A stretch of 6,609 bases of DNA from a virus, in IMG/VR virus record IMGVR_UViG_3300033053_000023, positions 1 to 6,609 of that record; one strand, 5' to 3'. The notes under the pieces were generated by a model, which did no database searches, was not told the DNA's origin, and saw only the letters and a program-made list of their open reading frames with translations. The position numbers and the translations under genes were made by a program. Positions 4,595-6,609 of the stretch are shown here, piece after piece (positions within the stretch are counted from its first letter, which is position 1; each line of letters starts with the position of its first letter).

Positions 4595-4774
4595 TTACTT
4601 CTTGGTCTTCGCCATCTTCTCGTAGTCTGCCGGCGTTATTTCCTCTAAACCCTTAAGAATCAACCACTTAAGCATTTCTGTTTCCTTTATCGACTTCTTT
4701 GTCTCGATGGTCGCTTTCACGGCCTCTCGCTCCACTTTTCTCCATGTTTCTTCGTCGATGTGCTTCGTCGGCAT
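4595..4774 (-). CDS. 59-aa ribbon-helix-helix-like DNA-binding protein, candidate phage repressor divergent from rep
   Basis: Reverse strand from ATG (4774-4772) to TAA (4597-4595) gives MPTKHIDEETWRKVEREAVKATIETKKSIKETEMLKWLILKGLEEITPADYEKMAKTKK. A purine-rich GGAGACCGAGAGG stretch lies just upstream. The pattern is a short N-terminal strand, helix, turn, helix, as in the Arc/CopG type. It is the only minus-strand gene and it faces rep. At one codex under 60 aa it is absent from the track. Confidence 0.6.
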   Translation of the reverse strand: MPTKHIDEETWRKVEREAVKATIETKKSIKETEMLKWLILKGLEEITPADYEKMAKTKK

Positions 4775-4805: not shown

Positions 4806-4891
4806 ATTCTAGGCTTTTTTTCTTAGACTCTTGACTTTGAGAATCTTAGAAACTAATTTCTCGGCTCAATCTCATTTCTTAGAAACTAAGT
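4806..4891. promoter_or_regulatory. Divergent promoter/operator region between the RHH-like gene and rep
   Basis: A perfect 13-bp direct repeat TCTTAGAAACTAA occurs at 4844-4856 and 4877-4889, 33 bp apart, with a partial copy TCTTAGA at 4821-4827. Copy 2 forms the inverted repeat CTTAG-aaa-CTAAG (4878-4890), ending 1 nt before the rep ATG. A candidate rep promoter has -35 TTGACT (4831-4836), a 17-bp spacer and -10 TAATTT (4854-4859), and copy 1 covers the spacer and -10. On the - strand a TAGAAT -10-like hexamer lies at 4811-4806. Confidence 0.5.
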
Positions 4892-6034
4892 ATGTTTATC
4901 GACTGGCTCACGGTTTCTCAAGAACATCCATTCGACCTTCCGGTCGTTTGCGACGTGTTCACGATTACCGTTGATGCCAATACGAACGAACTGCTGAGCA
5001 CTCGTCAGCCTCGATTCAAGCATGAGGGCAGCTTCTCTAGCTCGGTGACGATCCACGTTCAGGGCCGGAAGGTCCGTGTCGAGGGCAACCCCAGCCGGAT
5101 TAACCGCTTGGACAACCTGTTCGGGTATGAGCGAATCGAACAGTGCATTGCCGTCTATAACCACTTGCTCGCCGAATATGGTCTGCCGGGTTTTACGAAG
5201 TGCACTCGTGTATTTCAGCGTCAATCGACTTCGGCGCGTGGAAAGTTTGATGAGGCGTTAGTTAGTGACGGTGCGGTTATTGAGCGTATCGATCTGACAA
5301 CTAATGTTTCGGTTGGGGAGGGAAATGTTCTTGCCTATTTACGCGGTGTTTCAAGTCAACGGATCGGCCACTCGATTGGCTTCCTTTACCCTAATGGGAG
5401 AACTGTTGCCTGGACCCCTAAAGGAAACGGCAAGGGCGGTCGCCTCCAGTATCGGAAGGCTTACGATAAAGCCTTCGAGCTTGAGCAACATTTGCTTCCT
5501 CGATTCAAGCGCATGTTTGGCGAAACTTCCCCGGAATATGCACACGCTGTAAGAGTACGCGATTACTGCCAGCAATATGGCGTGGTCCGCATGGAACAAG
5601 AACTTAAGTCCGAGTATTTGAAACGAGAGGGGCTCTGTTTTTGGGGCCTAGTCGATGAATCGCGGTTCATTGGCATACACGATGCGTTTTTGGCGATAGA
5701 TGATCGGTTGAAGGTGACGGCGATGGATATTGCGAGTATTTCCGAACAGTTAATACACGAAGGCATTGTCGATACTGTCCGTGCTGCGAATACAACGGCG
5801 ATGTATGCCATTCAATGGATGCACGGCCAAGTTTTCGACTTTAATAAGTCTCAAGTTCAAACTCACGCGGCTCGCTTAAACAAGATCGGTATCAACATTC
5901 GCAACGCCTGCGATACTTCTCGCTTTGCTCCGGTATTCGTTCGTCAAGCTCGGGAAATTGAGAAAACTACCGCTCTGCCGATTCCGTCCTGGTACAAGCG
6001 CCCAACGGGCCATCTGCAATTGGTGGCTGCATGA
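4892..6034 (+). CDS. Rolling-circle replication initiation protein, phage gene II/X (Phage_CRI-type) family, 380 aa
   Basis: The N-terminus MFIDWLTV is characteristic of this family. Other motifs are VEGNPSRINRLDNLFG (the GNPSK...N.FG-type motif of gpII-like proteins), RIDLTTNV and a Tyr-containing YRKAYDKAFELE segment. Size and position upstream of the SSB/coat module fit. Confidence 0.88.
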   Translation: MFIDWLTVSQEHPFDLPVVCDVFTITVDANTNELLSTRQPRFKHEGSFSSSVTIHVQGRKVRVEGNPSRINRLDNLFGYERIEQCIAVYNHLLAEYGLPGFTKCTRVFQRQSTSARGKFDEALVSDGAVIERIDLTTNVSVGEGNVLAYLRGVSSQRIGHSIGFLYPNGRTVAWTPKGNGKGGRLQYRKAYDKAFELEQHLLPRFKRMFGETSPEYAHAVRVRDYCQQYGVVRMEQELKSEYLKREGLCFWGLVDESRFIGIHDAFLAIDDRLKVTAMDIASISEQLIHEGIVDTVRAANTTAMYAIQWMHGQVFDFNKSQVQTHAARLNKIGINIRNACDTSRFAPVFVRQAREIEKTTALPIPSWYKRPTGHLQLVAA

Positions 6035-6113
6035 TTGCCGCCACAGTTGAACTGTTCGCCGTGCCGCTTTTGGGCGGCGTGGTGATTCATTGGCTCGGCA
6101 GGTGGGTGCGTTC

Positions 6114-6503
6114 ATGACTTTTCTTGAACCGGAACAATGTCCTGATTGTGGTCGCTTTATGCCGGCGGCTTGTCTGTTGGTTTCCTCCGTTGACTGTCCC
6201 GCTGACTGCCCTTATCCCCACGCCCTGGGCGAATGTCCGTACTGTCGTGCTCTGCTTTCTGTGCCCGCTCCTCTGGTCTCCAGCCGGGAGGAAACGGAGT
6301 TTCCGGTAGGCGTCAACGTCCTCAAACCTTCCGCCCCGGCTGTGGGATCTCTGGGCGCTGCCACGTCCGTCTCTCGCGTGTCCCGATCGGAGCGCCGCGT
6401 AGATCGAGGGCAGGTGAGTTCCGCCCCTGTGCCCGCTCCGCTGGTTCCCAGCCGGGAGGAAACGGAGTTTCCGGTAGGCGCTTCTTCGGAGTGTTGCCAA
6501 TGA
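6114..6503 (+). CDS. Hypothetical 129-aa Cys-rich (zinc-ribbon-like) protein with an internal 56-aa-period repeat
   Basis: ATG 6114 is the preferred start (the track uses TTG 6090), with AGGTGG upstream. The N-terminus MTFLEPEQCPDCGRFMPAACLLVSSVDCPADCPYPHALGECPYCRALL carries CPDC and CPYC pairs. The stop TGA 6501-6503 overlaps the next ATG (ATGA at 6500-6503). The C-terminal half is low-complexity and carries the two 52-bp repeats in frame. Confidence 0.45.
   Translation: MTFLEPEQCPDCGRFMPAACLLVSSVDCPADCPYPHALGECPYCRALLSVPAPLVSSREETEFPVGVNVLKPSAPAVGSLGAATSVSRVSRSERRVDRGQVSSAPVPAPLVPSREETEFPVGASSECCQ
6261..6312 (+). repeat. 52-bp direct repeat, copy 1 (contains hairpin GGAAAC-gga-GTTTCC at 6290-6304)
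   Basis: GTGCCCGCTCCTCTGGTCTCCAGCCGGGAGGAAACGGAGTTTCCGGTAGGCG matches 6429-6480 at 49/52 positions, offset exactly 168 bp. Confidence 0.9.
6429..6480 (+). repeat. 52-bp direct repeat, copy 2 (hairpin at 6458-6472)
   Basis: GTGCCCGCTCCGCTGGTTCCCAGCCGGGAGGAAACGGAGTTTCCGGTAGGCG has three substitutions relative to copy 1. Two are synonymous in the 6114 frame and one gives Ser to Pro. Confidence 0.9.
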
Positions 6504-6609
6504 GAACTGTGAGTTTCCAGGGTGTTCAACTAACTTCCGGCCAGCGTCGCGCTCAGGCATTCCAGCAGCAAGTTCGCTCCTCGTTTCTGTCGGCACATCT
6601 GCAACAGCA
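6500..6609 (+). CDS. 5' part of the junction-spanning 77-aa hypothetical protein (continues at nt 67-190 of the circle; 6544-6609 duplicates 1-66)
   Basis: ATG 6500-6502 overlaps the upstream stop (ATGA), and GGAG (6488-6491) lies 8 nt upstream. The frame is open to the window end and continues in phase at the window start to TAA 188-190. Confidence 0.45.
   Translation, partial: MRTVSFQGVQLTSGQRRAQAFQQQVRSSFLSAHLQQ
6544..6609. repeat. 66-nt terminal overlap, an exact copy of nt 1-66 (circular-genome linearisation overlap)
   Basis: Base-by-base comparison: GCGTCGCGCTCAGGCATTCCAGCAGCAAGTTCGCTCCTCGTTTCTGTCGGCACATCTGCAACAGCA occurs at both window ends, and an ORF reads through the junction in frame. 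Confidence 0.95.

Follow-up and report, generated by a model that had tools for sequence, protein, structure and literature searches.

The question raised by this locus is whether a pair of near-identical, hairpin-bearing repeats inside a short open reading frame (ORF) represents protein-coding sequence, cis-acting DNA, or both at once. The repeats are found in IMG/VR virus record IMGVR_UViG_3300033053_000023, of which a stretch of 6,609 nucleotides (nt), referred to below as the window, was analyzed in full. By its genes, the window is an inovirus of a dif-integrating Pseudomonas lineage. The ORF in question, ORF129, occupies the slot between the replication initiator gene rep and ORF77, a gene conserved in that lineage. 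In our best reading, the repeated unit is a GC-rich module of the intergenic type and not a conserved protein domain.

The two direct repeats are 54 nt long, identical at 51 of the 54 positions and start 168 nt, or exactly 56 codons, apart (Table 1). The next-best direct repeats of this genome are at most 28 nt long with about 75% identity, and hence the pair is far past what chance would give. Both copies are in the frame of ORF129 and encode VPAPLV(S/P)SREETEFPVG, the three differences between them (T/G, C/T and T/C) being two synonymous changes and one Ser/Pro exchange. Each copy carries one hairpin, GGAAACNNNGTTTCC, which is found in the genome solely at 6290-6304 and 6458-6472. An earlier note on this DNA had described such an in-frame, hairpin-bearing pair with this spacing, and its description is borne out, now over 54 nt. 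The same note held that the pair is not a segmental duplication, which turned out to be wrong. The two repeats are 1.32 copies of a 168-nt tandem unit, which consists of the repeat proper (R, 54 nt) and a spacer (S, 114 nt). The flanks appear to be unrelated because the second copy of the unit stops at the 3' junction of the slot: it ends at 6481, where the conserved ribosome-binding region of ORF77 begins, and DNA conservation with the relatives returns at 6488. The GC content of 6200-6500 is 0.66; it is 0.635-0.67 in the intergenic DNA at 4200-4600 and 0.45-0.57 in the genes.

Several other explanations of the repeat pair were considered and rejected. It is not the template/variable pair of a diversity-generating retroelement, as the differences are not confined to adenines and none of the ORFs scanned contains a reverse transcriptase domain. 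An integron attC or XerCD site was rejected on the sequence of the repeat; the putative dif-like attP hairpin of this phage is located elsewhere, at 3556-3655. An assembly artefact was rejected as well, since there are three sites of difference between the copies and four independent contigs, each from its own sample, contain the unit as an internal island. An Rfam scan gave nothing in 6000-6609, its sole match in the window being DicF at 4456-4495 (24 bits against a gathering threshold of 48, E 0.06), which is most likely due to chance. A tRNA scan gave nothing relevant, and there was no match in the plasmid collection.

The bounds of the unit are defined by a second Pseudomonas inovirus. In a search of 241 million metagenome records, an exact 22-mer from the repeat core had one match, contig L108; in IMG/VR, exact seeds taken from R and from S had none. 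Window positions 6256-6425 align with positions 498-666 of the reverse complement of L108 with 149 of 170 positions identical (88%) and a net gap of 1 nt. The rest of the window shows no similarity to L108, even by tblastx, and the homology is therefore bounded to precisely one repeat period, R plus S. The Rep of L108 is of the G2P type and is 82% identical to the Reps of Pf 42-1 and Pf 97-1. Complete genomes of the L108 phage from three other samples (L114-L116) were retrieved via a neighboring gene for a 68-aa repressor-like protein. L114 contains two units in tandem (period 166 nt, 2.0 copies and 96% identity by Tandem Repeats Finder), and L115, L116 and L117 have one unit each. In the S part these single units match different copies of L114, that of L115 being U2-like and that of L116 U1-like. 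Every array in L114-L117 is followed by a degenerate copy of R, called R'.

The unit is non-coding in L114-L117, because its period in L114 is 166 nt, a number not divisible by three, indels separate it from the unit of the window, and a 189-aa ORF called in L115-L117 is lost in L114. An open frame across the unit also occurs by chance in L115. The zinc-ribbon-like head of ORF129 was not found in L108 or in L114-L117. The proposal of the earlier note that the repeat has an identity at the level of DNA was thus well founded: in another inovirus, the same unit is a non-coding, intergenic tandem repeat of variable copy number. The repressor and Rep relatives of the L108 group (L112, L113 and L118-L123) gave no match to it; with the more distant relatives lacking it, the unit is accessory in that group too.

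The hairpin in each copy of R, GGAAAC-GGA-GTTTCC, is a G-N-A triloop closed by a C:G pair and hence follows the GNA loop rule. It does not have the canonical GCGNAGC core, since its own core is ACGGAGT and the second pair is A:T. GNA and GNNA mini-hairpins are extraordinarily stable, with a Tm of 70-76 C for GCGNAGC, resist nucleases, bind SSB (single-stranded DNA-binding protein) poorly and are not explained by the standard thermodynamic parameters (Kimoto & Hirao 2026, PMC13037366). They are found at the complementary-strand priming sites of G4, St-1 and alpha3, in ssiA of RSF1010 (CCGAAGG) and in the early promoters of N4 (PMC13037366). As this class occurs at the priming sites of single-stranded DNA (ssDNA) replicons, the priming site suggested by the earlier note may still be a suitable description of the repeat.

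Hairpins with a C-GNA-G loop on a perfect stem of 5 bp or more were counted. The window contains four of these on the plus strand and none on the minus strand, with 0.12 expected: one at 4218 with a GTA loop, one at 4533 with a GCA loop (that is, GCGCAGC) and the two R copies. L114 contains seven on the plus strand and none on the minus strand (0.10 expected), and L115 six and none (0.09 expected). All hairpins of this class in L114 and L115 are inside the intergenic region and on the packaged strand; the R copies of the window are on the plus strand too, within an ORF. In dinucleotide shuffles of the L115 intergenic region, 0.02 hairpins were expected against the 6 observed, and none of 2000 shuffles reached 6; with the unit left out, the count is still 5 against 0.02. 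One such hairpin per 168-nt unit arose by chance in 9 of 2000 shuffles. The L115 set includes GCGGAGC twice and CCGAAGG once. In R', which reads GGAAACC-GGA-GGTTTC, paired insertions of a C and a G have kept the hairpin and broken the frame. The site orthologous to 4532-4546 carries GCGAAGC, CCGAAGG or GCGCAGC in several relatives.

The explanation that we favor, and to which we give roughly even chances, is that a mini-hairpin DNA module of the intergenic type was exchanged between Pseudomonas inoviruses, amplified in tandem and captured in the slot, where it is read through as the tail of an orphan ORF. The R+S module would have moved between phages by recombination, and its copy number would shift via slippage or recombination between units. 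In viral ssDNA the mini-hairpin would form and act as a node resistant to SSB/g5p, for example as an auxiliary signal for complementary-strand priming; by analogy with the known sites, its role may lie in SSB exclusion or in such priming. In the window, 1.32 units would have been fused in frame behind a small zinc-ribbon ORF, in the slot between rep/ORF28 and ORF77. Ribosomes would read through the module and produce ORF129 with a disordered tail containing the two VPAPLVxSREETEFPVG copies, the tail being a translated passenger. Read-through is the most likely outcome because each slot ORF is chained to the next by an ATGA overlap. A bolder proposition, which we regard as unlikely, is that R+S is a mobile, self-contained ssDNA signal, namely an SSB/g5p-free spot that serves complementary-strand priming or packaging, has passed between unrelated Pseudomonas inoviruses, has multiplied in tandem and is translated here as well, with clusters of C-GNA-G hairpins as a hitherto unrecognized hallmark of the intergenic control regions of such phages.

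A number of observations weigh against the module being captured non-coding DNA with a functional hairpin. The unit of the window is exactly 168 nt long and open, and the substitutions in the ORF129 frame lean towards synonymous ones, which is consistent with a coding history, although the excess (8 of 18) is not significant. The 90 Rep relatives show a weak C-GNA-G enrichment of about 2.5-fold, with 28 hairpins on the plus strand and 15 on the minus strand where about 11 are expected. The stem at 4217-4231 is conserved in the relatives, but its loop there is mostly CTCG or CTTG. The unit is found in just two independent genomic contexts, and L114-L117 are near-identical, so that they offer no real covariation test of the hairpin. 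Furthermore, L108 was picked with an exact 22-mer of the hairpin core, and the identity of the 33-nt core is therefore partly a matter of ascertainment. Finally, nearest-neighbor folding of the repeats is no better than that of shuffled sequences (z of -0.45 to -1.4 for the copies and -0.09 for 6240-6500); these z-scores are not decisive, because the standard parameters miss GNA mini-hairpins (PMC13037366).

Copy number variation by itself could also be a product of replication. According to this explanation the unit is a neutral minisatellite, whose hairpins stall rolling-circle replication and cause template switching, and which persists only where insertions are tolerated, in the intergenic region and in the slot, being open in the latter for the sake of coupling to ORF77. 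Near-identical phages do have one or two copies with different single-unit variants, close relatives on both sides lack the unit, the sequence is extremely rare (the single metagenome match and none in IMG/VR), and a frame across it is open by chance in L115 too. However, the strand specificity of the GNA loops, seven to zero in L114, argues for selection on the hairpin, which was also retained in R' through a paired insertion, and two lineages without other DNA similarity have kept the unit at 88% identity. We consider a neutral minisatellite quite improbable.

The earlier note had also proposed that the repeats bind Rep or form part of the (+) origin. We compared the slot, from the stop codon of rep to the start codon of ORF77, in 89 loci with the same Rep family (67-78% identical Rep). 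In 40 of them rep and ORF77 overlap in an ATGA and there is no interval at all; in the other 49 it measures 79-705 nt. The repeat of the window was found in none of the 89. A blastn profile of the window against 103 loci covers rep fully, falls to zero at 6051-6487 and restarts at the ribosome-binding site of ORF77. The repeat is thus very probably not the origin of this Rep, because it is absent from all of these phages with the same Rep family, 40 of which have no room for it. Conversely, the other carriers of the unit, L114-L117, have a G2P-family Rep without a tblastx match to that of the window. What can be said for Rep-binding iterons, or for a part of the (+) origin of the adjacent rep, is that the repeats lie 80-450 nt beyond the 3' end of rep and that the two palindromic copies are spaced by 168 bp, or about 16 helical turns; these are just two 54-nt copies and not several short iterons. 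Taken together with the conserved non-coding blocks upstream of rep, the distribution makes such an origin extremely improbable. These blocks, at 4201-4400 (conserved in about 30 loci) and 4501-4600 (49 loci), have non-conserved flanks and may represent the actual origin or packaging signals of this lineage. Two GC hairpins at 4545-4590 are strong in ssDNA (z -3.7).

The slot itself is highly variable. When filled, it nearly always holds a homologue of ORF28 (about 44 loci; 28 aa, MIAAT..., best E 2e-8) and carries an ORF from one of about 20 or more clusters that are unrelated to each other; in some cases such clusters overlap in different frames. Four of the clusters are mutually unrelated Cys-rich mini-proteins of 58-71 aa, ATGA-chained as in the window; in L006 and L067, for example, the order is rep, ORF28, a 71-aa Cys-rich ORF and ORF77. 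Accessory genes or genes for interaction with the host may be found among these mini-ORF clusters, of which several are Cys-rich. Among the other contents of the slot are a 208-aa ORF without a Pfam match in L020/L026 and an ORF at 5378-5530 of L018 with a weak match to the ribosome modulation factor (Pfam RMF, E 1.7e-5, below the cut-off). The GenBank records of relatives, for example Pf 17897, WX_Y and silverpheasant213, lack an annotation for ORF28.

In the window, rep, ORF28, ORF129 and ORF77 form a chain with three successive ATGA stop/start overlaps, the stop codon of ORF129 (6501-6503) overlapping the ATG of ORF77. Three ORFs and not two, as the earlier note had it, therefore separate rep from the SSB-like gene; ORF28 and ORF77 are lineage-conserved, ORF77 giving tblastn matches in almost every Rep relative, and only ORF129 is unique. 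Shine-Dalgarno (SD)-like sequences are located 7-8 nt ahead of the ATGs of ORF129 and ORF77, the former being AGGTGGG 7 nt before the ATG at 6114. By codon usage the ORF129 frame is the best of the six in the head, the tail and the spacer. Because of the three overlaps, the SD-like site and this codon usage, the frame is probably translated, in agreement with the earlier note. Two reverse-strand ORFs of 169 and 105 aa were rejected, as they have poor codon scores, no family matches and fewer synonymous substitutions.

Translation raises the possibility that the unit was coding in origin. ORF129 would then be a real accessory protein, in which a zinc-ribbon head is followed by a disordered tail with two partner-binding SREETEFPVG motifs, the copies in L114-L117 would be decaying, and the hairpin would be incidental. 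In favor of this are the ATGA coupling at both ends and the SD-like site, the best-of-six frame, the 56-codon spacing, the small Cys-rich proteins encoded by other slot ORFs, and the frame-breaking indels in the L108-type copies, which look like those of a pseudogene. The substitution pattern points in the same direction. Between the window and L108, 6256-6365 contains 6 synonymous and 6 non-synonymous changes in the ORF129 frame, as against 1-3 synonymous ones in each of the other five frames, and the changes fall on third, first and second codon positions 9, 6 and 3 times, respectively. In a comparison of five copies of R, variation in the P, A, P and V codons is confined to wobble sites; this periodicity, with 4 of the 7 sites that vary in the 5' part of R being in phase (p about 0.17, binomial estimate), is too weak to count, and the synonymous/non-synonymous split of the three differences between the window copies has no statistical weight. 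The claim of selection on both protein and DNA is accordingly not demonstrable from the substitutions at hand.

On the other side, the codon score of ORF129 is about zero (-0.02 bits/codon) and the lowest of all ORFs in the genome, core genes having 0.11-0.40, and its GC content is intergenic-like. The tandem duplication in L114, with its 166-nt period, was tolerated or selected without a frame, and the hairpin class is 300-fold enriched in the intergenic region concerned, also with the unit excluded. Nor has the protein any relative in the searches made. Among 5.8 billion proteins only ORF129 itself was found, an exhaustive HMMER search of 1.84 billion representatives returned only itself and two spurious matches to repetitive proteins, and there was no match in PHROG, NCBIfam, PADLOC or PDB sequences and no tblastn match among GenBank phages. 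A search for ORF129 loci in IMG/VR and the JGI metagenomes gave none, this search not being exhaustive, as the metagenome scan evidently missed L108. An AlphaFold single-sequence model has no confident fold (predicted local distance difference test, pLDDT, 53.6; predicted template modeling score, pTM, 0.21). On balance, a coding origin of the unit is possible, albeit rather doubtful.

The head of ORF129 has two CxxC knuckles (C9/C12 and C41/C44) at the spacing of a zinc ribbon. Its Pfam matches, to Zn_ribbon_9, UPF0547 and DUF7837, are below the cut-offs, with 14-17 bits against 28-29, and it shows no similarity to the other Cys-rich slot ORFs (blastp E of at least 0.9). Small zinc-ribbon proteins (CxxC...CxxC) resemble it in that CPDC and CPYC are 28 residues apart, and differ from it in that ORF129 has extra cysteines, sub-threshold matches, no confident structure and no homologue. 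A tandem 12-nt (V/A)DCP repeat is present at 6187-6210, and the DNA of the two knuckles (6136-6152 and 6232-6248), 32 codons apart, is 76% identical. There are thus hints that the head grew by duplication, too. ORF129 itself is ordinary cargo.

How does the unit compare with known systems? No inovirus is known to use GNA mini-hairpin priming sites; in the Ff phages, complementary-strand priming involves RNA polymerase acting on long hairpins. The GNA mini-hairpin priming sites of G4, St-1, alpha3 and RSF1010 ssiA (PMC13037366) and the hairpins described here have in common the loop rule, the location on the strand that exists as ssDNA and the clustering in non-coding DNA, and the window has an exact GCGCAGC at 4536-4542. 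R differs from these sites in its A:T second pair (ACGGAGT), 6-bp stem and location in an ORF. The intergenic region of Ff (M13/f1/fd), with its gpII-binding repeats and (+) origin nick site, likewise combines a G2P-family Rep with repeated DNA near rep. However, the Ff origin is conserved, non-coding and tied to its Rep, whereas the repeat of the window is absent from all phages with the same Rep family and is located downstream of rep in a translated chain. Phage minisatellites, or variable-number tandem repeats, resemble the unit of 166-168 nt in that one to two copies occur in near-identical genomes and the last copy is truncated, but here the unit is common to otherwise unrelated genomes, and its hairpin is of a class that seems to be under selection.

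In Pf4-like prophages, the region PA0717-PA0719 ahead of the SSB gene (PMC7549136) is also short, variable and made of small ORFs beside replication and SSB genes, and its 'PA0719' has a 71-nt piece in common with the L108 intergenic region. It differs from the slot in that the lineage of the window integrates at dif without an integrase, that the slot extends from rep to ORF77, and that its cargo is ATGA-chained to rep. In the intergenic region of L114-L117, the unit immediately follows, on the 3' side, a structured element of about 125 nt, for which RNAalifold predicts 28 pairs, 9 of them with compensatory changes. This element is shared by Pf 17897, Pf 97-1, Pf 42-1, WX_Y and the 'PA0719' coding sequence of Pf4. 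It lies in the annotated PA0719 gene of Pf4-like phages and in non-coding intergenic DNA of the dif-integrating Pseudomonas inoviruses, and different phages have different frames open across it. Part of PA0719, or the whole of it, may be a structured element acting in cis rather than protein-coding.

If the interpretation as a mini-hairpin is correct, it would extend the Hirao-type GNA mini-hairpins from the priming sites of microviruses and plasmids to filamentous phages. It would also make the as yet unmapped complementary-strand, packaging or SSB-exclusion signals of the dif-integrating Pseudomonas inoviruses recognizable by a simple signature in their sequence. Moreover, the window would offer a clear example from nature of how an intergenic module acting in cis is taken up into a chain of translationally coupled genes. 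Since the genes downstream must stay coupled in such a chain, non-coding DNA is forced to become an ORF, one of the ways in which protein sequence can arise de novo. Should the hairpin be inert, what is left is an ordinary orphan ORF with a recent tandem duplication. As far as we know, neither the mini-hairpin clusters nor a cis-type module turned coding have been described for inoviruses. We know of no report of GNA mini-hairpins in these phages, with no literature search having been aimed at this point. The systems named in PMC13037366 are microviruses, RSF1010 and N4.

Table 1. Coordinates of the repeat unit, the coupled chain and other features of the window; the last row refers to other genomes.
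Feature	Position	Strand	Remarks
g5p-like SSB	222-524		
Zot-like assembly ATPase	2700-3548		
C-GTA-G mini-hairpin TCGCCC-GTA-GGGCGA	4217-4231	+	Start of conserved non-coding block
Canonical GCGCAGC mini-hairpin ACCGGC-GCA-GCCGGT	4532-4546	+	Conserved intergenic block
rep, G2P/gene II family replication initiator	4892-6034	+	Heads the coupled chain; Pfam, PHROG
ORF28, conserved hydrophobic 28-aa micro-ORF (MIAATVELFAVPLLGGVVIHWLGRWVRS)	6031-6117	+	ATG on rep stop, stop on ORF129 ATG
ORF129, orphan chimeric ORF	6114-6503	+	Cys-rich zinc-ribbon-like head and translated repeat tail
Zinc-ribbon-like head of ORF129	6114-6258	+	CPDC residues 9-12, CPYC 41-44, C20, C28, C32, tandem (V/A)DCP
R copy 1, first 54 nt of tandem unit 1	6259-6312	+	47/54 identical to R of L108
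C-GGA-G triloop mini-hairpin GGAAAC-GGA-GTTTCC, copy 1	6290-6304	+	
S, other 114 nt of tandem unit 1	6313-6426	+	From the L108 alignment
R copy 2, start of tandem unit 2	6427-6480	+	Unit truncated at 6481
C-GGA-G triloop mini-hairpin, copy 2	6458-6472	+	
ORF77	6500-6609, on across the circular junction to 190	+	PHROG 7248, E 4.2e-34; lineage-conserved
Structured element of about 125 nt	L111 (Pf4, AY324828) 1440-1585; L106 630-722; L107 6610-6727; L109 265-383; L110 856-935; L108 1724-1854	minus in L108	

Bases 1-66 of the window are repeated exactly at 6544-6609, and the genome is therefore circular with 6543 nt. Besides the genes in Table 1, Pfam and PHROG matches identify a pVI-like DUF5455 protein and the major coat protein. 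The product of rep matches Pfam G2P_X_C (E 8.8e-21) and Phage_CRI (E 1.1e-7) as well as PHROG 702 (E 3.7e-107). Its 90 closest relatives (L002-L091) have 67-78% identity and are mostly from Pseudomonas; among them are Pseudomonas contigs and prophages, two P. aeruginosa phages, Pf 17897 and WX_Y, and 'Phage silverpheasant213' from a metagenome. This lineage corresponds to the integrase-less 'groups 4-7' of PMC10675462, according to which dif-integrating Pseudomonas inoviruses are frequent in clinical P. aeruginosa.

Several further elements of the window are of note. A near-perfect hairpin of about 100 nt at 3556-3655 (ssDNA z -5.6), whose arms start with TTCGCATAATG, resembles an attP in the style of CTXphi, formed by folded ssDNA and used in XerCD integration at dif, in agreement with the absence of an integrase. 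Direct repeats of 12 nt, TTCGCATAATGT, flank the related prophage Pf 17897, which carries a similar hairpin at its left end. Four GGTAC(C)-centered repeats at 3656-3790, including a 28-nt inverted repeat at 3735-3790, directly precede the gene at 3791-4048 (PHROG 8031) and look like operators; in Pf 17897 (L106 120-245) GGTACC repeats are likewise found ahead of the homologous 'DNA-binding protein' gene. Operators are also what two copies, one of them imperfect, of the 5-3-5 palindrome CTTAGAAACTAAG look like, which lie at 4846-4858 and 4877-4889, directly upstream of the rep ATG and between rep and a divergent 59-aa ORF at 4595-4774 (PHROG 5219). Finally, a perfect 18-bp GC-rich hairpin (z -6.4) is located at 2643-2681 between the pVI-like gene and the Zot gene; as it has no T-run, it is not a classic terminator.

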